From a virus, in UHGV virus genome UHGV-1558646: DNA of 11,251 nt; one strand, written 5' to 3'. The position numbers and the translations under genes are program-made. Under the pieces are notes generated by a model, which saw only the letters and a program-made list of their open reading frames with translations, did no database searches and was not told where the DNA came from. Each line of letters starts with the position of its first letter. Position 1 is the stretch's first letter. Positions 1 through 11,251 of the stretch are shown here, in pieces.

Positions 1-208
1 CCCAACACCAAACATACTGTTTATCGTTCGGCATTCGCTCACTACAGCTTATCCAGCCATCCGTAGTTACCGGAGAATTGCCAGCCTTGCGCATGGCAAT
101 CTCCATGATTTCAACCATATCCCCTGGTGGAATTTTACAATGCTGACCAGTATGCCTCTGCTGTCTGGCATATTCGAGGATGTGCTCCAGCTTGGTACGA
201 TTAATCAT
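1..208 (-). CDS. Partial phage protein, N-terminal 69 aa visible (DUF551-like motif W-x-SERMP...VW); C-terminus lies beyond the window start
   Basis: ATG at 208..206 overlaps the TGA stop (207..205) of the upstream 166-aa gene (ATGA coupling). Frame is open to position 1. Translation: MINRTKLEHILEYARQQRHTGQHCKIPPGDMVEIMEIAMRKAGNSPVTTDGWISCSERMPNDKQYVWCW. Not in the ORF track because it has no stop in the window. Confidence 0.45.
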   Translation of the reverse strand, partial: MINRTKLEHILEYARQQRHTGQHCKIPPGDMVEIMEIAMRKAGNSPVTTDGWISCSERMPNDKQYVWCW

Positions 209-705
209 GATTTATCTCCCTTAAGCATGGCAGCGCGGCAGGCATCCTCTACGCCCTTAACTGCATCTGCGCAGTAGTTATAGCGATTGCATTCCACTAA
301 CTTCTGCTTGAGATTTTCAATTGATTGCGCGATATCAGCCTGTATTACCGGAGCTGGCGGAACGGCTGTCTGCACTCGAACGTCATCAGGTACTACCGGC
401 TCTACTGCCAACTGACTGGCATATTTGTTAATGGTAACGATAAGCTCTTGCTCGGCCTCATCCAGACAATCACTGATACCTCGCCTGTCACCGTCAAAAT
501 CATCGAAATCGGCACGAACTCTGGAAAACTTCAGGATTGCGGACAACACTTCACCAGGAATAAGCCGAGAGTTGCCCGATAGTGCATTCTGCTCCAGTGA
601 TGCCAGAGCAATTCGTGCCAGTTCCATTTGTTCACCACTGGTAAGCCCGTTTTCAAGCGGATTTTTAATGAATAACTCGATACGTTCTTTGGTAATAGAA
701 TTCAT
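205..705 (-). CDS. Hypothetical phage early protein (166 aa)
   Basis: ORF track 205..705. ATG at 705 is preceded by SD AAGGTGA. Its stop overlaps the start of the next downstream gene (ATGA). Lies in a co-oriented left-operon gene chain. Confidence 0.6.
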   Translation of the reverse strand: MNSITKERIELFIKNPLENGLTSGEQMELARIALASLEQNALSGNSRLIPGEVLSAILKFSRVRADFDDFDGDRRGISDCLDEAEQELIVTINKYASQLAVEPVVPDDVRVQTAVPPAPVIQADIAQSIENLKQKLVECNRYNYCADAVKGVEDACRAAMLKGDKS

Positions 706-706
706 G

Positions 707-895
707 CTATTTCACCTTAATCTCAACATTTCGCAGCTTTATGTCTACTGGCAGGTCTGACTTTCCGGTTAATGCTAATGCGAGATTTTCTGGAGTAATG
801 AGAGCAGTTATTGTTCTACCCATCGCAAGGCGGATAATCAGCCTTATCTCTTCGTCACAAGCGCCAGGGCGAATAATTGATATTTGTCCGTTCAC
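707..895 (-). CDS. Small hypothetical protein (62 aa from GTG at 895; ORF track extends to an ATG at 937)
   Basis: GTG at 895..893 is preceded by SD AAGGAG at 6-nt spacing and sits 1 nt after the TGA of the ead/Ea22-like gene. The upstream ATG at 937 lacks an SD and would overlap the preceding gene by 41 nt. Confidence 0.4.
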   Translation of the reverse strand: MNGQISIIRPGACDEEIRLIIRLAMGRTITALITPENLALALTGKSDLPVDIKLRNVEIKVK

Positions 896-896
896 C

Positions 897-1511
897 TCAC
901 TCTCCTTTAATGCGAATGCCAGCGGCGCGGGAATCATTCCATCGCTTTACTTCTTCACGAATTACGTCAATGCATTCTTTCGAATCCATTAGGTAATCTT
1001 CATCAAAAAGACGTTCCTGTTCGTTTTCTATCGCAACAATGATTGATTCAACTAACTTTTGTGCCTGAGAACCACTTTCTAACTCTTCTATGCGCTTACT
1101 CCCATCAGAGATAACACCTTCGTAATATTCACGCTGCTCGTTGAGTTTTGATTTTGCTTCCTCAAGCTCAACACGCAGTTTCCCTACCGTTAGCGCAATA
1201 TCCTCGTTCTCCTGGTCGCGGCGTTTGATGTATTGCTGGTTCCTTTCCCGTTCATCCAGTAGTGCCAGCACGGTAGCCGGGTTAGCCTCTGCTATGAATT
1301 CAGCGTTTGCATAAGCCTGAGCATCTGTTTCAACCAGGCAGTTAACATGACATTCTGCAATCACGCCACCGGGTTCTCCTTTCCATTTTTGACAAACAAA
1401 AACTCCTGTTAAATTGCCGTGCTGGTTAACAGATGTATGCCCTACGATGTAGCTTCCTTTAGTTGCTTTCTCTGCCTTTTCACGCAGTGTCTGATAATTA
1501 ATCTCGCTCAC
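897..1511 (-). CDS. ead/Ea22-like family protein (204 aa), GTG start
   Basis: N-terminus [23 protein letters not shown] followed by a long acidic coiled-coil, as recalled for ead/Ea22-like prophage proteins. Start codon is GTG (plus-strand cac at 1509..1511) with strong SD AAAGGAGG 6 nt upstream. Confidence 0.6.
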
Positions 1512-1633
1512 TGGTTGCCTCCTTTACGCCACATCGCATTCAGATATTTGTTGTCATTAACAGAACCGAAACTCTTTCTCTTAAGCAATTCCTCTCTCGA
1601 TGGCATTGGCTTTACGCGTTGGCGAATAATCAT
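1508..1633 (-). CDS. Possible small ORF (41 aa), below the ORF-track size cutoff
   Basis: ATG at 1633..1631; translation [41 protein letters not shown]. Its TGA overlaps the GTG start of the ead gene (GTGA). No clear SD; fills an otherwise 160-bp gap in a tightly packed operon. Confidence 0.25.
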
Positions 1634-1671
1634 TTCTGCCGGAAGAATGCCGGGATTGCATGCAAGTCCTC

Positions 1672-1962
1672 TCATGATTTACTCTCCACGAACTGGTCAA
1701 TAGCCATGCTAAGTGATACACCTAAAGTCTTGATATGCTGCTGAATATCCTGTAGCGTCTGCGCCTGAGATAACAGGATTTCACGGTTGCATAACTCTTT
1801 GACCAGATGCTCAAACTTGCTGTAATAACCGATACGACTTAGTGTTTCTTTCCCTGCATTCTCACCTTCTTTGATAATTCCTCTTTCGCTAAGAATCAGA
1901 TCGTGTTTGGTTCCGGTAATAACGTATTTTCCGAGGTCGATGTTTAGCTTCATTGTTTTCAT
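1672..1962 (-). CDS. Hypothetical phage early protein (96 aa from ATG at 1962; ORF extends to 1995)
   Basis: ORF track 1672..1995. Internal ATG at 1962 has SD GAGGAA at 6-nt spacing. Earlier ATGs at 1995 and 1980 lack an SD and overlap the upstream gene. Confidence 0.5.
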
Positions 1963-1972
1963 TGTTAATTCC

Positions 1973-2269
1973 TCAGTCATTACTGATAGCGCCATAGCGT
2001 GAGCGGTAATTACGCAGGCGCGGGTCGATATATTCAGGGAAGTTGGTATATGTGGCTTTGCGGAATGGTCGGATTGATGTTTCGTTTATTCGGTCTTTTT
2101 CCTGTTTTTCTGCGAGTTGTATATCGCGTCGGTACATCCGTTCTGCTTTTGTTTCTGGTGTCAGAGCAAGAAACGCGTCGAAATTGTTTTTGATATTTTC
2201 CAGCACCTCCGCCTTGGAGCTACCGGAGCAGTTGCGCGGGTCATCCGCACCATACAGAGGCGCTGGCAT
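1973..2269 (-). CDS. Hypothetical phage early protein (98 aa)
   Basis: ORF track 1973..2269. ATG at 2269 with a weak SD (AAGG). Co-oriented, 23 nt downstream of the stop of the preceding gene. Confidence 0.5.
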   Translation of the reverse strand: MPAPLYGADDPRNCSGSSKAEVLENIKNNFDAFLALTPETKAERMYRRDIQLAEKQEKDRINETSIRPFRKATYTNFPEYIDPRLRNYRSRYGAISND

Positions 2270-2292
2270 AATGGGAGCCTTATTTTCAGTAA

Positions 2293-2880
2293 TCAGAAAG
2301 AAGGGTAATCGTTCTGGCTGTAACCATAATCATCTGCATGATTCTGGCTTACGTTTTTAGAGCGATTGTCTTTATCTTTGAGATGGGCAACCATGTTGGT
2401 GATAGTTTCTGGTTGCTTGCCTTCTGCCTTTTCTTTAAGGGTTTGACCTGTTTGTGCAATAAACGGGATGCGTATTTCCATCTGATAGCTGTCTGCACCA
2501 GTCCTTTTGTTTGTGGTTAATACTTTCTGGAGCACTAACCCGATTTTCTTTCCATGAAATTCAGGTGCAACAAATTTACTGGCGGAAACCATATGTTGCG
2601 TTAACTGCTTAATCCCAACACACCCCATCATGGCATGAACGACATTTGCACCAAACTTGTTTTCCGTTCCGTCATTTTTCTGAACACAAACGCTAAGATA
2701 CTGGATTTTACGTCCGTCGTCGGATTCGCCAGAAAACTCAATAAATTTGGCTCCTTTTTCTGATTGCTTTAGTTCTGCTTCAGTAATGGTAATGATATGA
2801 GCGCCAGTTTCGTTAATAAAACCACCTTGCCCTGCGGTCAGTGCTGCTTCTTCGTTATAAGTAAAAATCACGTTGCTCAT
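2293..2880 (-). CDS. Sak4 partner protein, putative ssDNA-binding/accessory protein (195 aa) with acidic-aromatic C-terminal tail ...DDYGYSQNDYPSF
   Basis: ATG at 2880 overlaps the TGA of the upstream Sak4-like gene (ATGA). C-terminal tail is reminiscent of the SSB tip (DDDIPF). Assignment is by position and tail, not by recognised OB-fold motifs. Confidence 0.55.
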   Translation of the reverse strand: MSNVIFTYNEEAALTAGQGGFINETGAHIITITEAELKQSEKGAKFIEFSGESDDGRKIQYLSVCVQKNDGTENKFGANVVHAMMGCVGIKQLTQHMVSASKFVAPEFHGKKIGLVLQKVLTTNKRTGADSYQMEIRIPFIAQTGQTLKEKAEGKQPETITNMVAHLKDKDNRSKNVSQNHADDYGYSQNDYPSF

Positions 2881-3557
2881 GCGGCGTTTTCCTTAATTTG
2901 ATGAACATTATTGATGCCGTAGTAATCACAAACAGTGGCATCGACGAAAGAGAGATCGTTATCAATCTCATTGGAATCAAACATTCCCATTGGGGATTTA
3001 ACAGTGTCTGCACCGTTGTTTTTTGTAGTGAAAAAGAACTGGTCATCACGGGTAAGGGTGCGAAGAACTATAGTAAACATGCCTTCGACAGTGATTTTCT
3101 CGTCCAGCATTTTGCCGATAGTTTTCATTTTCACACGCCCCATAGGGGTTTCTTCGGTGTGTGCAAGAAAATAGACTCTCAGGTCATCAGGTGCATCCTG
3201 TGCAGCCTTAATCACCTCCCATGCGTGGCGGCCTATCTCAGTGAATTTATCAAACGATTTTTCTTCTGAGCGGCGCATAAACTCATTGCTCATCACATAC
3301 TGGAAGTCATCAACAATAACGATTCTTTTCCCGTATTCGTGAGCACGCTTAATTACGGCAACTATTACGTCCCATTTGTCAGTGGTAACTACGGTTCCTT
3401 TTTTTGCTCTGGCATCCCATGCCAGCCATTCTTTTGATTTAAATGGTAGCGGCTTGCCTATTGGTTTTATAAGTATTGCTTCCTCTGGATTGATATTTCT
3501 CATGCTGGTTGATTTTCCGGTGCCAGATTCACCGAGTATTAATGTTGCAGTTCCCAT
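2877..3557 (-). CDS. Sak4-like core-only RecA-fold ATPase (AAA_24 family) recombination protein (226 aa)
   Basis: Walker A GESGTGKST at residues 8-16 and Walker B-like RIVIVDDF. Size and N-terminal P-loop are typical of phage Sak4/AAA_24. SD GAGGTGA before the ATG at 3557. Sits where lambda has the Red genes. Confidence 0.7.
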   Translation of the reverse strand: MGTATLILGESGTGKSTSMRNINPEEAILIKPIGKPLPFKSKEWLAWDARAKKGTVVTTDKWDVIVAVIKRAHEYGKRIVIVDDFQYVMSNEFMRRSEEKSFDKFTEIGRHAWEVIKAAQDAPDDLRVYFLAHTEETPMGRVKMKTIGKMLDEKITVEGMFTIVLRTLTRDDQFFFTTKNNGADTVKSPMGMFDSNEIDNDLSFVDATVCDYYGINNVHQIKENAA

Positions 3558-3565
3558 AATTCACC

Positions 3566-3754
3566 TCAGAATGGTAATTCGGATGAGGAGGAAAGAAACT
3601 CGCGCTCATTCATGCGCTCTCTTTGCGCCTGCCATAAGCAAAGTTGTTTCTTTGATTTATCTCCCGCTTTACGCCAGTAACGAGCCTCAGCAATGTGATA
3701 TTCTCTTTTTAATCGACTTAACTCTGGAGTTTTCGCCAGTTCTACCGGAATCAT
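3566..3754 (-). CDS. Small basic hypothetical protein (62 aa)
   Basis: ATG at 3754 overlaps the kil TGA (ATGA), with SD GGAGG 5 nt upstream. Translation: MIPVELAKTPELSRLKREYHIAEARYWRKAGDKSKKQLCLWQAQRERMNEREFLSSSSELPF. The ORF-track start at 3766 is in frame but lacks an SD. Confidence 0.5.
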   Translation of the reverse strand: MIPVELAKTPELSRLKREYHIAEARYWRKAGDKSKKQLCLWQAQRERMNEREFLSSSSELPF

Positions 3755-3864
3755 TTTGACCTCCATTTCCTGTAGGCTTCGACGGCCTCACGAAACATCT
3801 TTTCATCACCAATAAAAGTGGCGATAGTGAATTTAGTCTGGATAGCCATAAGTGTTTTATCCAT
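3751..3864 (-). CDS. kil: Kil-like host cell-division inhibitor peptide (37 aa)
   Basis: Translation MDKTLMAIQTKFTIATFIGDEKMFREAVEAYRKWRSK closely matches the lambda Kil N-terminus as I recall it (MDQTLMAIQTKFTIATFIGDEKMFREAVDAYKKW...). ATG at 3864 with SD AGGAG. Overlaps the end of cIII as in lambda. Confidence 0.6.
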   Translation of the reverse strand: MDKTLMAIQTKFTIATFIGDEKMFREAVEAYRKWRSK

Positions 3865-3997
3865 TTTTGGGAACTCCTGGCTGATTAAGTATGTCGATAA
3901 GGCGTTTCCATCCGTCACGTAATTTACGGGTGATTCGTTCAAGTAAAGATTCGGAAGGGCAGCCAGCAACAGGCCACCCTGCAATGGCATATTGCAT
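3857..3997 (-). CDS. cIII: cIII (46 aa), anti-FtsH regulator of cII stability
   Basis: Read by hand in a frame absent from the ORF track: MQYAIAGWPVAGCPSESLLERITRKLRDGWKRLIDILNQPGVPKNG. This matches lambda CIII (recalled) over its first 46 residues. SD TAAGGAG 6 nt upstream of the ATG at 3997. Confidence 0.65.
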   Translation of the reverse strand: MQYAIAGWPVAGCPSESLLERITRKLRDGWKRLIDILNQPGVPKNG

Positions 3998-4061
3998 GGT
4001 GTGCTCCTTATTTATTTACACATAACGAAAACGCCTCTAGTGAAGCGTTATTGGTATGCAT

Positions 4062-4087
4062 ATAAAAAAGCCCTCACATTGGAGGGC
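4062..4087 (-). terminator. Intrinsic terminator-like hairpin, leftward transcript (tL-like)
   Basis: Minus strand reads GCCCTC-caatgt-GAGGGC followed by TTTTTTATA. Stem at plus 4070..4075 and 4082..4087; T-run is the complement of 4064..4069. Confidence 0.5.
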
Positions 4088-4149
4088 AAAGAAGATTTCC
4101 AATAATCAGAGCAAGTCGGCTCCTGTTTAGTTACGAGCGACATTGCTCC

Positions 4150-4177
4150 GTGTATTCACTCGTTGGAATGAATACAC
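4150..4177. repeat. 9-bp inverted repeat GTGTATTCA-N10-TGAATACAC
   Basis: Perfect 9-bp arms at 4150..4158 and 4169..4177 in the intergenic region between the 207-aa gene and cIII. Possible protein-binding site or RNA hairpin. Confidence 0.4.
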
Positions 4178-4204
4178 AGTGCAGTGTTTATTCTGTTGTT
4201 TATG

Positions 4205-4231
4205 CCAAAAATAAAGGCCGATTATGCGGCC
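4205..4231 (-). terminator. Intrinsic terminator-like hairpin directly after the 207-aa gene
   Basis: Minus strand reads GGCCGCATAATCGGCC followed by TTTATTTTTGG. Stem overlaps the TAA stop at 4222..4224. Confidence 0.5.
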
Positions 4232-4845
4232 TCGGAAGGAAGTCCAATCATCTTATTCAAATCTTCTACCCGTAAAGCAGGAAGTGCTGTACTTGCTTTA
4301 TCTGCTTCTTTTGGTAGCAATTCTTTGCTTTCAGGCCAAACTTCAATAAGTCGCTTAACTGTTGTGACTGATTTCAAAGCAGCCCATACATTTGATTCGA
4401 TATCCTTTTTCTTGGCTTCAAGTTTTTGTTGCAATGCGCAGATTTCATCAAACCTTTTTGTTATTTCGTGTTCTGCGTCAAACATGCATTTATCTTTGAT
4501 CGGAGTAGGGAGCAATATATCTTTGCCGTTGCCGTCTTCCCCATATGAATGCCATCCAACCCTTCTGCCAGATACAGTCAGATAAATTGAAGTAGAACTA
4601 ACATCGTATGAGTAAAATGAACATCCCATCTTTCCAAGTTCTTCACTTATAGCTACCAACTTGGATGATAACTGATCCACTTCCTCAGTTTTCTTTTTAC
4701 CGCCAAACGCAATAACTCTGGCGTCAAGTGCAAGCTGGTTCTTTAACTTTGTTACTTCTTCAAGTTCAGTGAACACCCCGGACTTAATTAAAGCGTTACG
4801 AGCGATTTCCTCTTTCATTCTCGTAGTTAAGCGGATTGATGACAT
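4222..4845 (-). CDS. Hypothetical protein of unknown function (207 aa), AT-rich
   Basis: ATG at 4845 with SD GAGAGGAA 5 nt upstream. The ORF-track start at 4905 is a TTG overlapping the N stop. Translation starts MSSIRLTTRMKEEIARNALIKSG. No recognisable motif. Composition is visibly more AT-rich than the flanking genes. Confidence 0.6.
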   Translation of the reverse strand: MSSIRLTTRMKEEIARNALIKSGVFTELEEVTKLKNQLALDARVIAFGGKKKTEEVDQLSSKLVAISEELGKMGCSFYSYDVSSTSIYLTVSGRRVGWHSYGEDGNGKDILLPTPIKDKCMFDAEHEITKRFDEICALQQKLEAKKKDIESNVWAALKSVTTVKRLIEVWPESKELLPKEADKASTALPALRVEDLNKMIGLPSEAA

Positions 4846-4906
4846 ATTAATTCCTCTCAAATAAGTGGTTTGCTGCCTAATTTCATTTTCTGGCGACCAA
4901 CACAAG

Positions 4907-5290
4907 TCACCTCGCCGTCAGTTGTTTGTATTTCCGGTAGCCTGCCGCGTAAATGGCTACGTTTGGAAGACATACACCAGTTTCTGGTTGCTTATGTCCA
5001 AACTCATTCGCGTACACAATGGCTGCTCGCTCCAGATTGCGTCTGTATTCTTTCTGTTGCCAGATCACGTCCTGTGCCATGAACTTAATTGGCTTAGCGT
5101 CTTCTATGCGCTCAGGCGTTTCGTGAGTACCTTTAGCCTGAATCTGCGCTCTGCTTAGAGTAGGGCGGTGTAATACTTCTGAACTTATTGCTTCTTCGCG
5201 GGCCAGCACGCCGTTAGCTAATGCCTTTGCCTTTAAACGCTCACGACGACGAGAACGTGAATTGCCTTTGAACTGAGTTCTGCGTGTCAT
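4907..5290 (-). CDS. N: N-type transcription antitermination protein, P22 gene 24-like (127 aa)
   Basis: N-terminal arginine-rich motif GNSRSRRRERLKAKALA and C-terminus LPNVAIYAAGYRKYKQLTAR resemble P22 N as I recall it. ATG at 5290 with SD AGGAGG at 6-nt spacing; the ORF-track start at 5356 lacks an SD. nutL boxB lies upstream. Confidence 0.7.
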   Translation of the reverse strand: MTRRTQFKGNSRSRRRERLKAKALANGVLAREEAISSEVLHRPTLSRAQIQAKGTHETPERIEDAKPIKFMAQDVIWQQKEYRRNLERAAIVYANEFGHKQPETGVCLPNVAIYAAGYRKYKQLTAR

Positions 5291-5419
5291 ATGGAACCTC
5301 CTGATGAACTTTGGCGGTGAATACAGCCGGGCGACTAACTCCGGTCGCGTAATCATTGCAAAGCGCCTCCGCCGAGAAGGTTAGCTTCTGCATTCACCCC
5401 AAAGTTCACTTTGGTTATT

Positions 5420-5434
5420 GCGCTTTGTCAGCGC
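5420..5434 (-). promoter_or_regulatory. nutL boxB RNA hairpin (P22-type, GACAA loop)
   Basis: Minus strand reads GCGCTGACAAAGCGC: 5-bp stem, 5-nt GACAA loop. This matches the P22 boxB-left sequence as I recall it. Located about 130 nt upstream of the N start codon. Confidence 0.55.
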
Positions 5435-5460
5435 CGTAGATTCATATTCGAATCGTTGTA

Positions 5461-5481
5461 TATTCACCGCCCTGGTGAGTA
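5461..5481. promoter_or_regulatory. Operator-like 21-bp near-palindrome TATTCACC-GCCCT-GGTGAGTA in the PL region
   Basis: Arms TATTCACC and TACTCACC (7 of 8 match) with a 5-bp centre. The half-site resembles lambda operator half-sites (TATCACCGC). An exact inverted copy of TATTCACCGCC occurs at 5313..5323. Confidence 0.35.
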
Positions 5482-5511
5482 GTGCGTCCTGCTGATGACG
5501 ATAATAATGAA

Positions 5512-5542
5512 CCAATAGTTCGACATTATCAAGAACTATTGG
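5512..5542. promoter_or_regulatory. 31-bp palindrome CCAATAGTTC-N11-GAACTATTGG
   Basis: Perfect 10-bp inverted arms at 5512..5521 and 5533..5542 in the PL control region, between the moron terminator and nutL. Confidence 0.3.
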
Positions 5543-5716
5543 TACGAATTTTGGTGATTTATTAACTCTACGAAGTATGATTCTGATATATAAGGAAATT
5601 TATTTTTGAAAATGTGGCTGATGAAGGTTATGCGGCAGGGATCAGAACTGCATGGTTTAGCGAGTTACATCAATAAATACAATTGGTTATGTGTTTTTAG
5701 GTGGGGGATCGAGAGG

Positions 5717-5743
5717 CAAATAAAACCCGGCTCGGTGGCCGGG
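5717..5743 (-). terminator. Intrinsic terminator closing the repressor/moron transcript
   Basis: GC-rich stem CCCGGC / GCCGGG (5726..5731 and 5738..5743) followed on the minus strand by TTTTATTTG, about 14 nt after the TAA of the 341-aa gene. Also T-rich on the plus side. Confidence 0.55.
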
Positions 5744-5756
5744 GTTAGATTTTCTG

Positions 5757-6782
5757 TTACGGGCGAGTGATGGTTGATGCGTTTCCGTTTTCTATTACAC
5801 CTGCTCGTATCGTGTAGCTTCCCAAGATTTTTACTGTCCTGTTTTCTTTCATTGCATCAAACAGTATGGCGATCTCGTCTTTATCATCTATGAACGACGT
5901 GTCCACCGAAACAGGGAAACTGTCTTCACTAGATGGTTCGCGGCAGCTTAGGGTTATCTTTTCCGCAGTACGCTTGATTCCATCAATGACTAATTCAAGG
6001 TTTCTTTCTTCTTTTTTTGCTTTTTCGATAGGGTTCTTGATTAGTTCGTGGATTTCTTTGTTAGACAGTTCAACTGTGCTTGCGCCTGATATGACAATTT
6101 TGTCAGCATCAGACGCGCCTTTTAATACCCCTGTATACGCTTTTGCAGTATGCTCTTGAATCCCTTCGGCGCGCTCTACTGCATCTATGCCCGCTTTAGC
6201 TCTAATCGCCTCAAGCATTCCGTCCCTTAATATCGTCATGCGCTCGTTTTCTGATTTAATCTTGGCTTCTTCGAGCTTTGTTTCTTCTTGCTTGACTTCT
6301 ACTTCGGCTTTTTTCTCTAAGTATGATGTACCAACCCATGCACCGCCTATAACGGTGACAGCAAACAAGAAGCATAATGTTTTTTGGCTAGGACTCATAC
6401 CGTGTGTTACCTTCTCAAAGGCTTTACCGAATGCTTCAAAAAGCTCTGTTAATGCAGCAAGTATATCAGTACAACCTTCATTAATGGTAAAGATGATCTC
6501 TGCTTCCTCTTTATCTTTACCAGTTAACCTTTGAAGGTTGTCAGTTTTATATTTTATTAGTGTGAAAACTTTATAAATTTCAGTCTGAAATTCGCATAAA
6601 CCCTGAGCTAGAGGAGATGGAAGCGTTCCGTTGTAGCGAGAAGGATCACCATAAATCTTAAAATTCACATTATTGAAGAGGTCTAACTTGATCCTGTCGA
6701 TAGTGATCTCTTCGCCACCATCTAACCTTGCAAACAAAGATTCAATGTCGTCCAGACTTGAAACATTAATAATATCTTTCAT
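5757..6782 (-). CDS. Unknown membrane-anchored coiled-coil protein (341 aa) in the rexAB-equivalent slot; candidate exclusion/abortive-infection gene
   Basis: ORF track 5757..6782. ATG at 6782 with SD GAAGGTG. One predicted TM helix (TLCFLFAVTVIGGAWVGTSYL, about residues 136-156) followed by a K/E-rich coiled-coil. AT-rich relative to the repressor and replication genes. 80 bp downstream of the repressor stop on the same strand. Confidence 0.7.
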   Translation of the reverse strand: MKDIINVSSLDDIESLFARLDGGEEITIDRIKLDLFNNVNFKIYGDPSRYNGTLPSPLAQGLCEFQTEIYKVFTLIKYKTDNLQRLTGKDKEEAEIIFTINEGCTDILAALTELFEAFGKAFEKVTHGMSPSQKTLCFLFAVTVIGGAWVGTSYLEKKAEVEVKQEETKLEEAKIKSENERMTILRDGMLEAIRAKAGIDAVERAEGIQEHTAKAYTGVLKGASDADKIVISGASTVELSNKEIHELIKNPIEKAKKEERNLELVIDGIKRTAEKITLSCREPSSEDSFPVSVDTSFIDDKDEIAILFDAMKENRTVKILGSYTIRAGVIENGNASTITRP

Positions 6783-6862
6783 TACAACACCTTCGGCACA
6801 ACCTTGCTAGTTAAATTAGTGATTATAAAAATTGGATACTTACCAGCTATGTGACGATGAAG

Positions 6863-7570
6863 TCACGAACTTTTCAGCCACTCCCTTGCCTCGATGTCAT
6901 CCAGATGGCGAGATTGCTTCAGAATACCAGCCACATACTCCACCTTTGCTACTTGATGATAAGGCAACGTTATTGGCCTGTGGTCTTGGTTGATGCTTGT
7001 AAATTGGTATTCTCCATCTCTGTCATAGCCAAGAACCTTAATCATGTTGTGTCCTTCAACGGTTCTGACAAACACCTCATCACCCGGGAATACTTTGGTG
7101 TTAGGCTCAATGAGTACATATTCTCCTGATTTTATTCTGGGCCACATGCTGTCTCCTTTCACACGAAGGCCAAAGGCATCTGGATCATCGCTATAAATTT
7201 TGAGCCACCCATCGCGCTCTTCGGTCATCTCGATGGCACCATCAACACCAAGAATTGCCTCACCAACCACGCGCACTAACCCTTTTTTTAATTTGCCAAC
7301 AAATGAAAGAGTATCTTCATCATTCGCTCCATTTAACGAAGTGCCGTGCTGAAGCCAAACAACATCAACGTTTAGAAATTTCGCAAGCGCATTCATTTTT
7401 TCCTGACGCGGTAAAGACTCAGCATTAAACCATTTGCTAACGCCTTTGGACGAAAGAGAAAGGGCACGGGCTATAGCCATTCCCCTACCATGTTCATCAA
7501 GACCAGCTTCTTTACAGGCTTGCGCTAGCCGCTGGGCGAATTCTTTGCGCACTTTTTCATTCTGAACCAT
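6863..7570 (-). CDS. cI: Prophage repressor, cI-type (N-terminal HTH plus C-terminal S24 LexA-like autopeptidase, 235 aa)
   Basis: S24 signature VKGDSMWPRIKSGEYVLIEP...GDEVFV with a downstream Lys (NMIKVL). N-terminal HTH-like segment. Divergent from cro across a 78-bp operator region. Not a lambda cI or P22 c2 sequence match. Confidence 0.85.
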   Translation of the reverse strand: MVQNEKVRKEFAQRLAQACKEAGLDEHGRGMAIARALSLSSKGVSKWFNAESLPRQEKMNALAKFLNVDVVWLQHGTSLNGANDEDTLSFVGKLKKGLVRVVGEAILGVDGAIEMTEERDGWLKIYSDDPDAFGLRVKGDSMWPRIKSGEYVLIEPNTKVFPGDEVFVRTVEGHNMIKVLGYDRDGEYQFTSINQDHRPITLPYHQVAKVEYVAGILKQSRHLDDIEAREWLKSS

Positions 7571-7648
7571 GAGTACGATACTAAAGCACTTGCAAAAACT
7601 TTCAGTTCAATCATAATGCGTACTGAAAGTACGAAAAAGGATATCCCT
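7571..7648. promoter_or_regulatory. cI-cro intergenic switch: candidate PR and PRM promoters with palindromic operator sites
   Basis: Palindrome CGTACTGAAAGTACG at 7619..7633 and related inverted site AACTTTCAGTT at 7597..7607. Candidate PR -35 TTGCAA (7590..7595) and -10 CATAAT (7612..7617). Minus-strand TAGTAT -10 (7583..7578) ends about 7 nt before the cI ATG, implying a near-leaderless cI mRNA. Confidence 0.5.
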
Positions 7649-7876
7649 ATGCAAAATCTTGATGAGCCGATTAAAGGTGTCGGCATCCCTGAAGTTGCGA
7701 AGGCTTGTGGAGTTAGCGAAAGAGCTGTCTATAAGTGGCTCAAAAACGGCTTCCTCCCTAAGACTGAGTTTTTTGGGAAAACGAAATACGCATCAAAAAT
7801 CGAAGAGATTTCTGGTGGCAAATATCAAGCAAGCGAAATGCTTGAAATAAGCAAAAAGAACCTTCTGGCTGCATAA
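7649..7876 (+). CDS. cro: Cro-type HTH regulator (75 aa)
   Basis: ATG at 7649 with SD AAGGAT at 6-nt spacing; the ORF-track start at 7616 would place the operator palindrome inside the coding sequence. HTH segment GIPEVAKACGVSERAVYKWLK. Position divergent from the repressor. Confidence 0.65.
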   Translation: MQNLDEPIKGVGIPEVAKACGVSERAVYKWLKNGFLPKTEFFGKTKYASKIEEISGGKYQASEMLEISKKNLLAA

Positions 7877-7883
7877 GTAACAC

Positions 7884-7929
7884 CGCTATTTTCACAATGG
7901 ACATTCGTCCTACGTCGCTGACAAAGCGA
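7884..7929 (+). promoter_or_regulatory. nutR: boxA-like CGCTATTTTCACA plus boxB hairpin TCGCTGACAAAGCGA
   Basis: boxB at 7915..7929 has a 5-bp stem and the same GACAA loop as nutL. boxA-like element at 7884..7896 resembles the lambda boxA consensus CGCTCTTACACA. Lies between cro and cII as in lambda. Confidence 0.5.
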
Positions 7930-8014
7930 GTCCCAATATATCTGACCAACTAAGGCCATATGCGTTTCCACGCATACCTTTCAACTAACTATTCACTATT
8001 GGAAATCTTAAGAA

Positions 8015-8311
8015 ATGGAACAAACAAGTTACAGCAAACTATCACAGCGTGACGTTGATCGCGCAGAAACAGATTTACTCATCAACCTGTCAACTATTAC
8101 CCAGCGCGGTCTGGCAAAGATGATTGGCTGTCATGAATCGAAGATAAGCAGGACGGACTGGAGATTTATTGCTTCGGTCCTGTGTGCTTTCGGAATGGCA
8201 TCAGACATCAGTCCGATTAGCAGGGCTTTTAAGTATGCGCTTGATGGAATCACCAATAAAAAACGCCCGGCGGCAACCGAGCGTTCTGATCAAATACAAA
8301 TGGAATTTTAA
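8015..8311 (+). CDS. cII: CII transcriptional activator (98 aa)
   Basis: C-terminus ...ITNKKRPAATERSDQIQMEF is near-identical to lambda CII (recalled: ...ILTNKKRPAATERSEQIQMEF). Positioned downstream of cro and nutR. Confidence 0.85.
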   Translation: MEQTSYSKLSQRDVDRAETDLLINLSTITQRGLAKMIGCHESKISRTDWRFIASVLCAFGMASDISPISRAFKYALDGITNKKRPAATERSDQIQMEF

Positions 8312-8333
8312 CAACATCCAACGAGGTAATTAT

Positions 8334-8477
8334 ATGCGAAAAACGCAGGAAAATAAACGCGTTAATCACCGAAAAGATGTGCTACGTGACCAGTTTTATC
8401 AGGGAGTTAATCCAGCAATAGCTGTGCCACTGAGAGAAATACTTAACAGGTACAAAACTTCGGAGAAGTCAAAATGA
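8334..8477 (+). CDS. Small basic hypothetical protein (47 aa)
   Basis: ATG at 8334 with SD GAGG at 7-nt spacing. TGA overlaps the ATG of the replication initiator (ATGA). The ORF-track version (8169..8477) overlaps cII in another frame, so the internal start is preferred. Confidence 0.4.
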   Translation: MRKTQENKRVNHRKDVLRDQFYQGVNPAIAVPLREILNRYKTSEKSK

Positions 8478-9205
8478 GCATGAATCTTATGGCTAAGGCC
8501 ATGAATATAAAGGTTGGCAACCCACTGAGAAAACTGGTTCTGATTAAACTTGCCGATAACGCCAATGATAATGGCGAATGCTGGCCTTCATATCAACATG
8601 TCGCTGACCAGTGTGAGGTGAGCAGATCGACAGTAAAAAGTCACATTAGGGCACTGGAAGAGATGGGTCTTTTGAAAAGGGAATGCAGAAGAAAAGGAGA
8701 GCTTAACCAGTCAAACGTTTTTTATCTGACGCTGGATAATGCACAACAAATCCCACCAGAATCAGGTGGGGCAGGAGCTGCCCCCAGAACCTATCACTCT
8801 TTTGAACCAGTCAATGAACCTAAAAACATTATGTTCGAACATGTCCGAACGGAGTGGGAAAAAACTCCTGACCGTCACGAAGAAACCGACAAGGCATTCG
8901 AGGAAATATTCTGGTGTGCAGGCATGCGGAAAGCCGGGAAGAAAAACGCAGCTTCAGCATTCAGAACACAGTTCAGGGAATGGCGTAAAACTACCAGGGG
9001 TACGGCAAGCGAGTTTGCCACGATGCTGGCAGAAGACATCGCATGCAGGAATGGTAAGCAGTTCGGATTCGACAGGTTGTTACCATCGAGCTACCTGAAC
9101 GGTCAACGCTGGAACGACGAGAAGCCAGAAACTATTCAACCACAATCCAAACCATCATCCGCAATCACCGTATCGAAAACTGGCTACGTGTTTTTCGACA
9201 GGTGA
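8474..9205 (+). CDS. Replication initiator / replisome organiser, O-like, with N-terminal HTH (243 aa)
   Basis: N-terminal LVLIKLADNANDNGECWPSYQHVADQCEVSRSTVKSHIRALEEMGLL resembles the HTH domain of phage replication initiators. Low-complexity linker PPESGGAGAAP. Located in the lambda O position. Confidence 0.7.
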   Translation: MSMNLMAKAMNIKVGNPLRKLVLIKLADNANDNGECWPSYQHVADQCEVSRSTVKSHIRALEEMGLLKRECRRKGELNQSNVFYLTLDNAQQIPPESGGAGAAPRTYHSFEPVNEPKNIMFEHVRTEWEKTPDRHEETDKAFEEIFWCAGMRKAGKKNAASAFRTQFREWRKTTRGTASEFATMLAEDIACRNGKQFGFDRLLPSSYLNGQRWNDEKPETIQPQSKPSSAITVSKTGYVFFDR

Positions 9206-9208
9206 ACC

Positions 9209-9316
9209 ATGAAATCCAGAATCAAATCGTTACTTATCGCTGGCTATAACCATGGCTGGCTTAGTTCTGCATTCGTTGAGTTCTGGTTTAACCGTCTCGA
9301 TCTGAGGTCAGCGTAA
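9209..9316 (+). CDS. Possible small ORF (35 aa) between the initiator and the primase
   Basis: ATG at 9209 follows AGGTGA. Translation MKSRIKSLLIAGYNHGWLSSAFVEFWFNRLDLRSA. Its TAA overlaps the primase ATG (TAATG). Below the ORF-track size cutoff. Confidence 0.3.
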   Translation: MKSRIKSLLIAGYNHGWLSSAFVEFWFNRLDLRSA

Positions 9317-11196
9317 TGACTCCAAGTGAACTGAGCGACCTGCTTTGGGCGCAGGTTGACAGGGTGGCTCCGCACCTGTTGCCAAACGGCAAGAAAGAGG
9401 GGCATGAGTGGGTTGCCGGTAACGTTAACGGTGACAAGGGAAACAGCCTTAAGGTCAACCTTAGCGGCAAGAAAAAATGGGCTGATTTCGCTGAGGGAGA
9501 CGGCGGTGACATGCTTGATTTGTGGATGGCATGTCGTGGAATTAACCTGCATCAGGCTATGCAGGAAGCGAAAGCATTTCTCGGTATCAAGGATGACGAT
9601 CACCATTTCGATGCCAGACGTGAGAAGAAATTCTCCAGACCTGATCGCAAGAAAATCGCCAGTTACGTTACCAGAACAGAATCCCATCTTGAGTACCTGC
9701 AATCGCGTGGCATATCGCCAGAAGTCGTAAAGCGCTACGAGGTTGTCAGCGGCAAGGTGTGGAATGGAGAGCGGGAACTGGATGCTCTGGTGCTTCCGTA
9801 CAAACGCGATGGTGAGTTGTTGCAGGTCAAGCGAATCAGCACTGAGCGCCCGGACGGGAAGAAAGTCATTATGGCAGAAGGTGATTGCGAACCTTGTCTG
9901 TTCGGATGGCAGGCTCTGGACGCTGGCGTGAGGGCGGTTGTACTTTGCGAAGGCGAAATTGATTGTATGAGCTATGCGCAATACGGCATCTCGGCGTTAT
10001 CCGTGCCGTTTGGTGGCGGGAAAGGCGCTAAGCAGCAGTGGATTGAGTTTGAGTATCACAACCTCGACAGGTTTGAGGAAATATTCATCTCGATGGATGT
10101 TGATGATGTTGGTCGTGAAGCCGCAAGGGAAATCGCAAGCCGACTCGGTGAACATCGTTGCCGTCTTGTTACTCTGCCGTACAAAGACATCAACGAATGC
10201 CTGATGAACGGTGTTACCGAGGATGAAATCTGGCAGTACATCGGCACGGCATCCTACTTCGATCCTGAAGAACTCTACAGCGCGCGAGAGTTTTACCAGG
10301 ACACTATCAACGCTTTCTACGGCAAGCAGCAGTATCTGTTTAATCCACCGTGGGAATCTCTGGCAGATAAATTCCAGTTCCGTGAGGCCGAGTTGACGCT
10401 GGTCAATGGTGTGAACGGTCACGGAAAAACGGAGGTTGTCGGGCATATGGCACTTGAGGCAATGCGTCAGGGTGTGAAGACGTGCATCGCGTCACTTGAG
10501 CTGAAGCCTGGTATTCTCCTTAAGCGCCTTACCCGTCAGGCGACGTGCTGCAAGATGCCGCCAGTGCTGGAAATTGACTCTGCATTTAAATTTTATGACG
10601 AAAGACTTTGGGTGTTTGGCCTGACCGGAACGGCGAAAGCCGACAGGCTGATCGAAATATTCGACTACGCTCGCCGCCGATACGGTATCCAGTTATTCAT
10701 CATCGACAGCCTGATGAAATGTGGCATAGGCGACGATGACTATAACGGGCAGAAGGCGTTTGTTGACTCGATTTGCGACTTCAAAAACAAAACAAACTCC
10801 CACGTCATTCTCGTTACTCACTCGCGAAAAGGAGACAGCGAAGAAAAACCAACCGGGAAAATGGACGTAAAAGGCTCTGGAGCGATAACAGACCTGACAG
10901 ACAACCTTTTTATCATCTGGCGTAACAAGGCTCGCGAGAGAGCGTTACAGAGAGTTCAAAGCGGTGAACAGATGTCAGAGAAGGACGAACAGCTACTGGT
11001 GTCTCCGGCATCTGTTTTGTTGCTTGAAAAACAACGTAACGGTGAAGGTTGGGAAGGTGGTATCCCGTTGTTCCTTGACGAGCAATCGCACCAGTTCCTG
11101 CAACTTGAATCAGGATCTCCATATAGCTACATCGCCAATATGCCGAAATCGGAATATGACGAGGCGTGGAGACAGGAAAACGTGACGGAGTATTAA
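9316..11196 (+). CDS. Bifunctional DNA primase (TOPRIM) / RecA-fold DnaB-like replicative helicase (626 aa)
   Basis: TOPRIM motifs VVLCEGEIDCMSYAQ (catalytic Glu) and ISMDVDDVGREA (DxD). Helicase Walker A NGVNGHGKTEV and Walker B LFIIDSLMK. SD GAGGT before the ATG at 9316. Confidence 0.85.
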   Translation: MTPSELSDLLWAQVDRVAPHLLPNGKKEGHEWVAGNVNGDKGNSLKVNLSGKKKWADFAEGDGGDMLDLWMACRGINLHQAMQEAKAFLGIKDDDHHFDARREKKFSRPDRKKIASYVTRTESHLEYLQSRGISPEVVKRYEVVSGKVWNGERELDALVLPYKRDGELLQVKRISTERPDGKKVIMAEGDCEPCLFGWQALDAGVRAVVLCEGEIDCMSYAQYGISALSVPFGGGKGAKQQWIEFEYHNLDRFEEIFISMDVDDVGREAAREIASRLGEHRCRLVTLPYKDINECLMNGVTEDEIWQYIGTASYFDPEELYSAREFYQDTINAFYGKQQYLFNPPWESLADKFQFREAELTLVNGVNGHGKTEVVGHMALEAMRQGVKTCIASLELKPGILLKRLTRQATCCKMPPVLEIDSAFKFYDERLWVFGLTGTAKADRLIEIFDYARRRYGIQLFIIDSLMKCGIGDDDYNGQKAFVDSICDFKNKTNSHVILVTHSRKGDSEEKPTGKMDVKGSGAITDLTDNLFIIWRNKARERALQRVQSGEQMSEKDEQLLVSPASVLLLEKQRNGEGWEGGIPLFLDEQSHQFLQLESGSPYSYIANMPKSEYDEAWRQENVTEY

Positions 11197-11251
11197 ATGA
11201 CCATCTACATCACTGAGCTTGTAACAGGCCTGCTGGTAATCGCAGGCCTTT
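11197..11251 (+). CDS. Start of next gene (partial, 18 aa visible, hydrophobic N-terminus)
   Basis: ATG at 11197 immediately after the primase TAA, with SD GACGGAG 6 nt upstream. Translation MTIYITELVTGLLVIAGL... runs to the window end. Confidence 0.3.
   Translation, partial: MTIYITELVTGLLVIAGL

Follow-up and report, generated by a model that had tools for sequence, protein, structure and literature searches.

A probable N-nut early antitermination system of the H-19B/933W type in a mosaic lambdoid coliphage

The window analysed here, an 11,251-nucleotide stretch of the virus genome UHGV-1558646, is the early region of a lambdoid coliphage, with N and its leader on one strand and cro, nutR and tR1 on the other (Table 1). 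From position 4022 to 8282 it shares 99.5% identity with the Escherichia phages PhiR12_1 to PhiR12_5; for the N and cI-cro-cII blocks, identity to Stx2a phages, phi24B and Min27 among them, is about 98%. A search with the whole window revealed no complete E. coli genome in RefSeq that covers at least 80% of it (the best covers 78%), and PADLOC returned nothing for two neighbouring genes of unknown function. The window does not extend to the late-gene part in which stx is carried in Shiga-toxin phages.

Table 1. Positions of the control elements and genes considered in this study.
Feature	Position	Strand	Content or basis
pL promoter with operators	5504..5545	-	promoter scan; operators verbatim from GQ499361
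nutL	5420..5486	-	boxB 5420-5434, 43-nt spacer 5435-5477, boxA-like 5478-5486
N leader	5291..5419	-	one long predicted hairpin
N gene (127 aa)	4907..5290	-	Pfam N_peptide, phrog_271, identity to 933W/H-19B N
Three intrinsic-terminator-like hairpins	4214-4233, 4070-4087, 4030-4049	-	terminator scan, consensus pattern only
cI repressor	6863..7570	-	between the nut sites; 235/235 identical to 933W cI; Pfam HTH_3 and Peptidase_S24
pR promoter with operators	7590..7633	+	promoter scan; 933W oR1-3 verbatim
cro	7649..7876	+	first gene of pR transcript, 5' of nutR; 75/75 identical to 933W Cro
nutR	7884..7929	+	boxA-like 7884-7892, 22-nt spacer, boxB 7915-7929
tR1 region (Rho-dependent terminator zone)	7930..8014	+	between nutR and cII; hairpin 7960-7975

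An initial annotation, made from the sequence alone, had described the phage as a mosaic with lambda-like cII and cIII and a repressor that is neither lambda cI nor P22 c2, and this description was borne out. The repressor is residue for residue that of 933W, while the lambda-like modules match Pfam Phage_CII (2.6e-33) and Lambda_CIII (9.4e-31) and include the cIII RNA thermometer, as in lambda (88.5 bits against the Rfam model). As cI, Cro, oR1-3 and OL1-2 are all those of 933W (AF125520; Plunkett et al. 1999), the immunity is of the 933W type. Phage 933W and its relatives phi24B and Min27 differ from the window in the interval between cI and pL, where 933W has the stk/L0081-L0084 block and the window instead has one 341-aa gene of unknown function.

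Leftward transcription would begin at pL, in which the -35 element TTGATA (5527-5532) and the -10 element CATTAT (5504-5509) are separated by 17 nt and are overlapped by OL1 (TCGAACTATTGGTTCA, 5508-5523) and OL2 (GTACCAATAGTTCTTG, 5530-5545), both verbatim as annotated in the 933W-like record GQ499361. The transcript probably starts at 5496 (AUCAGCAGGACGC...), since this position is identical to the start annotated in HK106 (EF120461) and to the pL starts of lambda and P22. Within nutL, the spacer carries two small predicted hairpins (5465-5477 and 5440-5453) and is preceded by the element CGCACUACU, which is labelled 'boxA-like' in public records and reads CGCAUUACU in the nutL 'boxA' of 933W; the site as such is annotated as nutL in the records of 933W, phi24B, GQ499361 and HK106. 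Against the boxA core GCUCUUUA, the best match anywhere from +1 to boxB is 4/8. Lambda and the window share a conserved segment of 33 nt at the start of the pL transcript (AUCAGCAGGACGCACU..CACC....GGUGA), and it is inside these 33 nt that CGCACUACU, called the nutL boxA in records of the HK106 type, lies, aligned with a lambda segment, CGCACUGAC, which is not boxA. The real boxA of lambda comes directly after this conserved segment, at a point where the window has none; the lambda boxA elements match 7/8 and 6/8 positions. The failure of the initial annotation to find a convincing boxA for nutL was thus well founded, because CGCACUACU aligns with a non-boxA segment and nothing exceeds 4/8.

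The N leader that follows is predicted to fold as one long hairpin, which starts about 10 nt past boxB and ends about 5 nt before the Shine-Dalgarno sequence AGGAGG (5297-5302), with a minimum free energy of -50.5 kcal/mol (z -4.1; 0/200 shuffled sequences fold as well). The same architecture is kept in 933W, SPN9CC/epsilon34, SF10 and VT2-Sakai, where the closing stem is conserved around four different interiors; that of 933W spans 168 nt, compared with 132 nt in the window, which is of the H-19B type. In lambda, according to Court and colleagues, the N leader reportedly mediates translational self-repression by N and is a target of RNase III. By analogy, the nutL boxB and leader hairpin of the window may have an additional role, not exclusive of antitermination, as a site at which N represses its own translation, with the hairpin as an RNase III target. 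The predicted fold would bring the nutL boxB next to the Shine-Dalgarno sequence, and the architecture persists in five relatives even though the hairpin interiors are unrelated in sequence. Structure prediction and the lambda analogy are what this proposal is built on, and the corresponding signal in the P22 leader is weaker (z -2.6), so we advance it tentatively, at somewhat less than even odds.

Rightward, pR (TTGCAA, 16 nt, CATAAT; 7590-7617) would give a transcript starting at about 7624. The operator oR2 (7595-7609) overlaps this promoter, oR1 (7619-7633) lies immediately downstream and oR3 occupies 7563-7577. Beyond cro, the boxA-like element that had been reported ahead of nutR is present as CGCTATTTT (RNA CGCUAUUUU) and matches the boxA core at 6/8 positions (GCUAUUUU). 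The spacer holds a hairpin, GGACAUUCGUCC, at 7899-7910, so that nutR folds into two hairpins, as in the published nutR of H-19B (PMC3526286), and the whole 46-nt site matches the annotated nutR of 933W, and that of H-19B, at every position. Identity with H-19B extends over the cro-cII intergenic region (137/138 from 7877 to 8014), and this region of H-19B is the nutR/tR1 cassette used in published antitermination assays (PMC3526286).

At the core of each nut site is a boxB hairpin: GCGCTGACAAAGCGC on the minus strand in nutL (RNA GCGCUGACAAAGCGC) and TCGCTGACAAAGCGA on the plus strand in nutR (RNA UCGCUGACAAAGCGA). The initial annotation had described both as 5-bp stems with the same GACAA loop, lying upstream of N and between cro and cII, and had taken them for the nutL and nutR boxB of an N antitermination system. 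Sequence and folding agree that each is a perfect 5-bp stem closed by a 5-nt GACAA loop (nutL -7.1 kcal/mol, z -3.2; nutR -5.6 kcal/mol, z -3.8), and both match elements annotated in H-19B and 933W. The nutL stem, GCGCU/AGCGC with the GACAA pentaloop, is that expected of the P22 system, and the nutR hairpin differs from it solely by a compensatory change of G-C to U-A at the outer pair. Both stand in the sense orientation downstream of their promoters, one between pL and N, 130 nt 5' of the N start codon and on the N-sense strand, the other in the interval from the cro stop (7876) to the cII start (8015), in the same sense as cro. When both strands of the window were scanned for a perfect 5-bp stem with a G-N-C-A-A loop, only these two matched. 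The 11-mer GCTGACAAAGC, common to both, occurs exactly twice in the window; with one mismatch allowed, shuffled sequences average 0.25 matches. Among 1000 first-order Markov simulations of the window, 967 contained no perfect 5-bp stem with a GACAA loop, 33 contained one and none contained two (mean 0.033).

A search of all Rfam families with E up to 1 yielded no model matching the nut sites, the cIII thermometer and a sub-threshold ToxT match being the only hits. Neither hairpin qualifies as an intrinsic terminator: no T-run follows either of them and neither was called by the terminator scan.

The N gene, preceded at 6 nt from its ATG by the Shine-Dalgarno sequence AGGAGG, encodes a protein that matches Pfam N_peptide (PF25694, 8.9e-15) and phrog_271 ('anti-termination protein N-like', 3.3e-38) and is identical to 933W N at 126/127 positions and to H-19B N at 123/127. 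Its N-terminus is arginine-rich, as had been claimed, with the motif 12-RSRRRER-18, and its C-terminus carries the RNA-polymerase-binding region ...LPNVAIYAAGYRKYKQLTAR. Compared with H-19B N there are four substitutions (E60D, K80E, I113L and Y121S, window residue first). The tyrosine at position 121, S121Y with respect to these relatives, lies within the conserved C-terminal RKSKQ motif and occurs in 0/80 close relatives and in none of PhiR12, 933W, H-19B and P22. On the strength of its sequence we take this N to behave like that of H-19B and 933W, full activity being assumed. A search of PDB chains with N gave nothing relevant, only a chance match at E 1.5; the N-peptide entries of P22 and lambda, short and diverged as they are, lie beyond the reach of phmmer.

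Phage H-19B is the closest system of known function. Its pL transcript is identical to that of the window from +1 through the nutL boxB and the whole N leader, and it shares the two-hairpin nutR, the degenerate boxA and the long, hairpin-bearing spacers (22 and 43 nt); what differs, apart from the four substitutions in N, is the immunity region between the nut sites (window cI 168/235 and Cro 19/75 identical). The N, nutL and nutR-tR1 of H-19B have been studied by Neely and Friedman in 1998 and 2000 and by the laboratory of R. Sen from 2005 to 2015. In the 2000 study of Neely and Friedman, H-19B N reportedly needed NusA but not NusB or S10, boxA was reportedly dispensable, and the nut spacers are said to show dyad symmetries absent from other nut sites. 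[quoted passage not shown] The searchable literature yielded no statement that ties H-19B N to a P22 boxB or to NusB independence.

The H-19B nutR/tR1 cassette supports N-dependent read-through of the Rho-dependent terminator tR1 in vivo and in vitro, and the arginine-rich-motif mutants of N R3H, S11F, R15C/P and R18P lose both nut binding and antitermination (Muteeb et al. 2012, PMC3526286). Table 1 of that paper puts read-through with H-19B N at about 40-50 %RT. The same work found two hairpins in H-19B nutR, in which N together with NusA/NusG gave protection over the spacer and boxB and none over boxA (PMC3526286). With NusA, H-19B N also reads through the triple intrinsic terminators TR'-T1-T2, a reaction that NusG stimulates, and a suppressor has been mapped to L108 in its RNA-polymerase-binding C-terminal domain (Mishra and Sen 2015, PMC4499122). 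The window N keeps all of the residues named in these two studies (R3, S11, R15, R18 and L108).

The initial annotation had gone further and assigned the system to P22, with a P22-type N and P22 specificity. In its strict form this reading holds that N is of the gp24 type and that N and gp24 are interchangeable on each other's nut sites. Part of it stands. The nutL boxB is identical to that of P22 over 15/15 nucleotides (GCGCUGACAAAGCGC), GACAA is the pentaloop of all four sites, P22 nutR included, and the gene order (pL-nutL-N and cro-nutR-cII/c1) is the same, so that boxB, judged by its sequence, is correctly called one of the P22 kind. The two N proteins are distant homologues: their C-terminal 30 residues are 63% identical (BLASTP, E 2e-9), and they have in common the motif skeleton F-GN---RR-ER and the tail LP-VA-YAAG-RK-KQ-TAR.

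Across the relatives examined, the type of boxB loop goes with the type of arginine-rich motif. A GACAA loop is found in the window and H-19B (motif GNSRSRRRERLKAKA) and in P22 (motif GNAKTRRHERRRKLA), and SPN9CC (motif GTSRARRRERLKAKA) has GACAA in nutR and GUCAA in nutL. The phages epsilon34, SF10 and VT2-Sakai (39-70% identity) belong to the same N family and share the spacer motif ..GGACAUUCGUCCUACG before the nutR boxB as well as the leader-hairpin architecture, but have boxB hairpins with a GAAA tetraloop (CGGCUGAAAAGCCG, UGGCUGAAAAGCCA and UCGCUGAAAAGCGA) and different arginine-rich motifs (..AAGRRRERRAALQ.. and ..AASRRRARRANLQ..), that of epsilon34 and SF10 being GSAAGRRRERRAALQ and that of VT2-Sakai GTAASRRRARRANLQ. 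An RR(R/H)ER core followed by basic or hydrophobic residues thus accompanies a G(A/U)CAA pentaloop, and the RRRERRAALQ kind accompanies GAAA, which places the window and P22 in one class. In lambda, whose system follows the same general logic and layout, a GCCCU stem bears a GAAGA/GAAAA loop and the arginine-rich motif is MDAQTRRRERRAEKQAQW. To the pentaloop class the window adds one more member, along with the unique S121Y in the RNA-polymerase-binding tail of N.

The assignment of the protein itself to P22 did not hold. The window N is 97-99% identical to another named and characterised N, that of H-19B/933W, whereas its global identity to gp24 (100 aa against 127 aa) is 38/127. The alignment with gp24 that the initial annotation had called for came out divided: BLASTP aligns only residues 99-127 of the window N with residues 71-100 of gp24, and the RNA-binding N-terminus aligns weakly, with the P22 motif GNAKTRRHERRRKLAIERD identical at about 7/18 positions and different at about 11/18. 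The nut sites, which were likewise to be compared, agree in boxB and disagree elsewhere. In P22 both have boxA as GCUCUUUA (8/8), 10-11 nt from boxB, against 6/8 and 4/8 in the window with structured spacers of 22 and 43 nt, and the P22 nutR boxB, ACCGCCGACAACGCGGU, has an identical loop but a different stem, at whose closing position C faces C as a mismatch. The 'P22 specificity' that had been proposed is a conjecture drawn from the boxB common to both systems. Cross-recognition between the window N and P22 nut systems is plausible from these sequences; a search of the literature found no cross-complementation data for P22- and H-19B-type N, and we consider the strict P22 reading unlikely.

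The favoured assignment, to the N-nut system of H-19B and 933W, was examined across relatives at two distances. The close sample comprised 80 contigs from IMG/VR that encode an N with 98-99% identity. An unchanged nutL boxB is found in 78/80 and an unchanged nutR boxB in 74/80, the remainder being truncated or without a match, so that both hairpins are invariant wherever they are present. Both sites are present in 74/80 contigs, and in these nutL and nutR are separated by anything from 1265 to 3515 nt, with 41 different values, which indicates that many different immunity regions have been accommodated between two invariant sites. The boxA elements are more variable: nutR has CGCUAUUUU in 44 contigs and the more consensus-like CGCUCUUUU in 30, and the nutL boxA-like element varies at several positions.

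As these relatives are too close and their boxB invariant, covariation was assessed in more distant phages. In eight distinct boxB sequences from relatives of N, all outer stem pairs form, with compensatory double changes in 3/4 pairs; the count was confined to the four outer pairs, as the MAFFT alignment put the gap of the tetraloops in the loop-closing column. These sequences score 0.70 for covariation and shuffled ones 0.14, with 0/500 shuffles reaching the observed value; the score collapses when the pairing partners are slid. That both hairpins arose as inverted repeats by chance, or are generic structures such as terminator stems, with no part in N action, is a notion that their length of only 15 nt and the commonness of 5-bp stems might invite, but it can be set aside as having almost no chance of being right, given that 0/1000 simulated sequences held two such hairpins, that both occupy canonical positions and orientations, that they are unchanged in every related contig that has them and that their stems covary.

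We therefore return to the reading of this locus as the early antitermination system, N with its nut sites, of the H-19B/933W family of lambdoid (Shiga-toxin-type) coliphages, set in a 933W-immunity region flanked by other mosaic modules, a reading to which we give a probability of roughly 93%. No feature of the sequence speaks against it. Both sites bear the names nutL and nutR in the public entries for 933W, phi24B, HK106 and GQ499361, and strong homology suggests that N and the nut sites of the window would function as those of H-19B do. Leftward transcripts, begun at pL near 5496 on the minus strand, would carry nutL, and rightward ones, begun at pR near 7624 on the plus strand, would carry nutR. 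As the RNA emerges, N would bind the GACAA hairpin of boxB through its arginine-rich N-terminus (residues ~1-22, with the core 12-RSRRRER-18), while its central part would bring NusA to the structured spacer and its C-terminal part would contact RNA polymerase. The elongation complex so modified would read past tR1 into cII and the replication genes.

On the leftward transcript, it would read through the intrinsic terminators predicted between 4233 and 4030 into cIII, kil and the recombination genes. These three terminator-like hairpins, which match the terminators placed at 4062..4231 in the initial annotation, lie between the Nmad5 gene, which follows N, and cIII. A scan of positions 3900-8400 found 10 terminator-like sites where 4.1 were expected, the three leftward ones being on the minus strand. 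They are candidate targets of the window N; standing as they do between N and cIII/kil, they imply that expression of cIII and kil should depend on N.

Nut sites and an N of this type are already known: they are of the H-19B/933W type, have been in GenBank records from 1998-1999 on and have been biochemically dissected. Particular to the copy in the window are only the unique S121Y in N and the particular surrounding mosaic. For annotation, the analysis names the immunity as that of 933W, replaces 'P22-type N' with an N of the H-19B/933W type that has a P22 boxB, and shows that what several public records label as the nutL 'boxA' falls, in alignment, on a stretch of the lambda leader that is not boxA.

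The regulatory cascade of Shiga-toxin phages opens with N-dependent transcription from pR and proceeds to Q and the late genes, among which stx is carried. It is conceivable, though on present evidence rather doubtful, that the diverged motifs GNSRSRRRERLKAKALA (H-19B/933W) and GNAKTRRHERRRKLAIE (P22), identical at about 7/18 positions, recognise the same GACAA boxB; were this so, the N of E. coli Shiga-toxin phages could antiterminate the early operons of P22-like phages of Salmonella, and vice versa. The GAAA tetraloop of epsilon34, SF10 and VT2-Sakai is GACAA minus its C, and the motif of N has changed as well. If the two changes belong together, the passage from GACAA to GAAA would represent a natural one-nucleotide specificity switch within the N family.

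The early region sits in a mosaic context. The flanks of the window (1-4000 and 8320-11251) are unlike those of its closest phage, PhiR12. On the left, the window carries Sak4-like and SSB recombination genes where PhiR12 has Bet; on the right, O/P of PhiR12 give way to a replication protein of the HTH type together with a Toprim/DnaB-like primase-helicase of 626 aa, as also found in phi24B and epsilon34. When complete E. coli RefSeq genomes were searched with the window, none covered at least 80% of it, and this precise mosaic therefore seems to have no record among them. Features of the region are collected below; the minus-strand hairpin at the 3′ end of cII matches in position the terminator of the oop antisense RNA of lambda and P22.

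Features of the early region (window coordinates unless stated)
Feature	Position	Strand	Remarks
lambda cIII RNA thermometer	3952-4010	-	Rfam RF01804, 88.5 bits, full length; across cIII start
Nmad5 gene	4222-4845	-	PF18757 ('nucleotide modification associated domain 5'), 7.5e-71; phrog_1965, unknown function
N residue 121	4928-4930	-	Tyr
N leader	5291-5419	-	boxB to Shine-Dalgarno sequence
44-aa CDS of PhiR12_1 record	5381-5515	-	L092 (PhiR12_1 record) 5361-5495; 'hypothetical protein'
annotated 'nutL boxA'	5478-5486	-	HK106, 933W, phi24B-type records; public records L003 (2512-2520) and L093
bidirectional terminator	5726-5743		predicted; after 341-aa gene
341-aa gene	5757-6782	-	between cI and pL; phrog_6191, unknown function
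strong terminator-like hairpin	8260-8287	-	predicted; 12 pairs + T-run; overlaps cII 3′ end

The 341-aa gene occupies the place of rexAB in lambda and of stk in 933W; its product yielded no match in Pfam or PADLOC, and the PhiR12 records name it 'T2SS GspM containing protein'. The immediate downstream neighbour of N is the Nmad5 gene, whose stop codon lies within the first predicted leftward terminator hairpin.

Two existing annotations around pL are probably mistaken. The 44-aa CDS in the PhiR12_1 record spans pL, the transcript start and nutL, and almost certainly reflects erroneous gene calling over a regulatory RNA region. The annotated 'nutL boxA' (CGCACUACU / CGCAUUACU) lines up with CGCACUGAC within the conserved 33-nt start of the lambda pL transcript, a segment distinct from the boxA of lambda, and is therefore, to judge from the alignment, probably not a genuine NusB/S10 site.

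Between boxB and the Shine-Dalgarno sequence, the N leader is predicted to fold into one long hairpin (−50.5 kcal/mol, z ~ −4), closed by the stem GUGAACUUUGGGGUG / CACCGCCAAAGUUCAU. This closing stem is kept in 933W, SPN9CC, epsilon34 and SF10, where minor differences leave the pairing intact, while the hairpin interiors are unrelated. VT2-Sakai shares the overall hairpin architecture, but not the closing-stem sequence. The hairpin looks like an analogue of the lambda N-leader structure involved in RNase III processing and translational autoregulation.

Residue 121 of N belongs to the RK(S)KQ motif, which is conserved at the C-terminus. The window encodes Tyr there, where all 80 IMG/VR relatives, as well as PhiR12_1, 933W, H-19B and P22, have Ser; Tyr121 may be either genuine variation in the tail that binds RNA polymerase or an error of sequencing.

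The N proteins of epsilon34, SF10 and VT2-Sakai carry a different arginine-rich motif, and both nut sites in these phages have a boxB with a GAAA tetraloop rather than the GACAA pentaloop. The nutL boxB of SPN9CC has a GUCAA loop beside a C-C mismatch, resembling P22 nutR. Arginine-rich motif and boxB loop co-vary naturally among these relatives of N.
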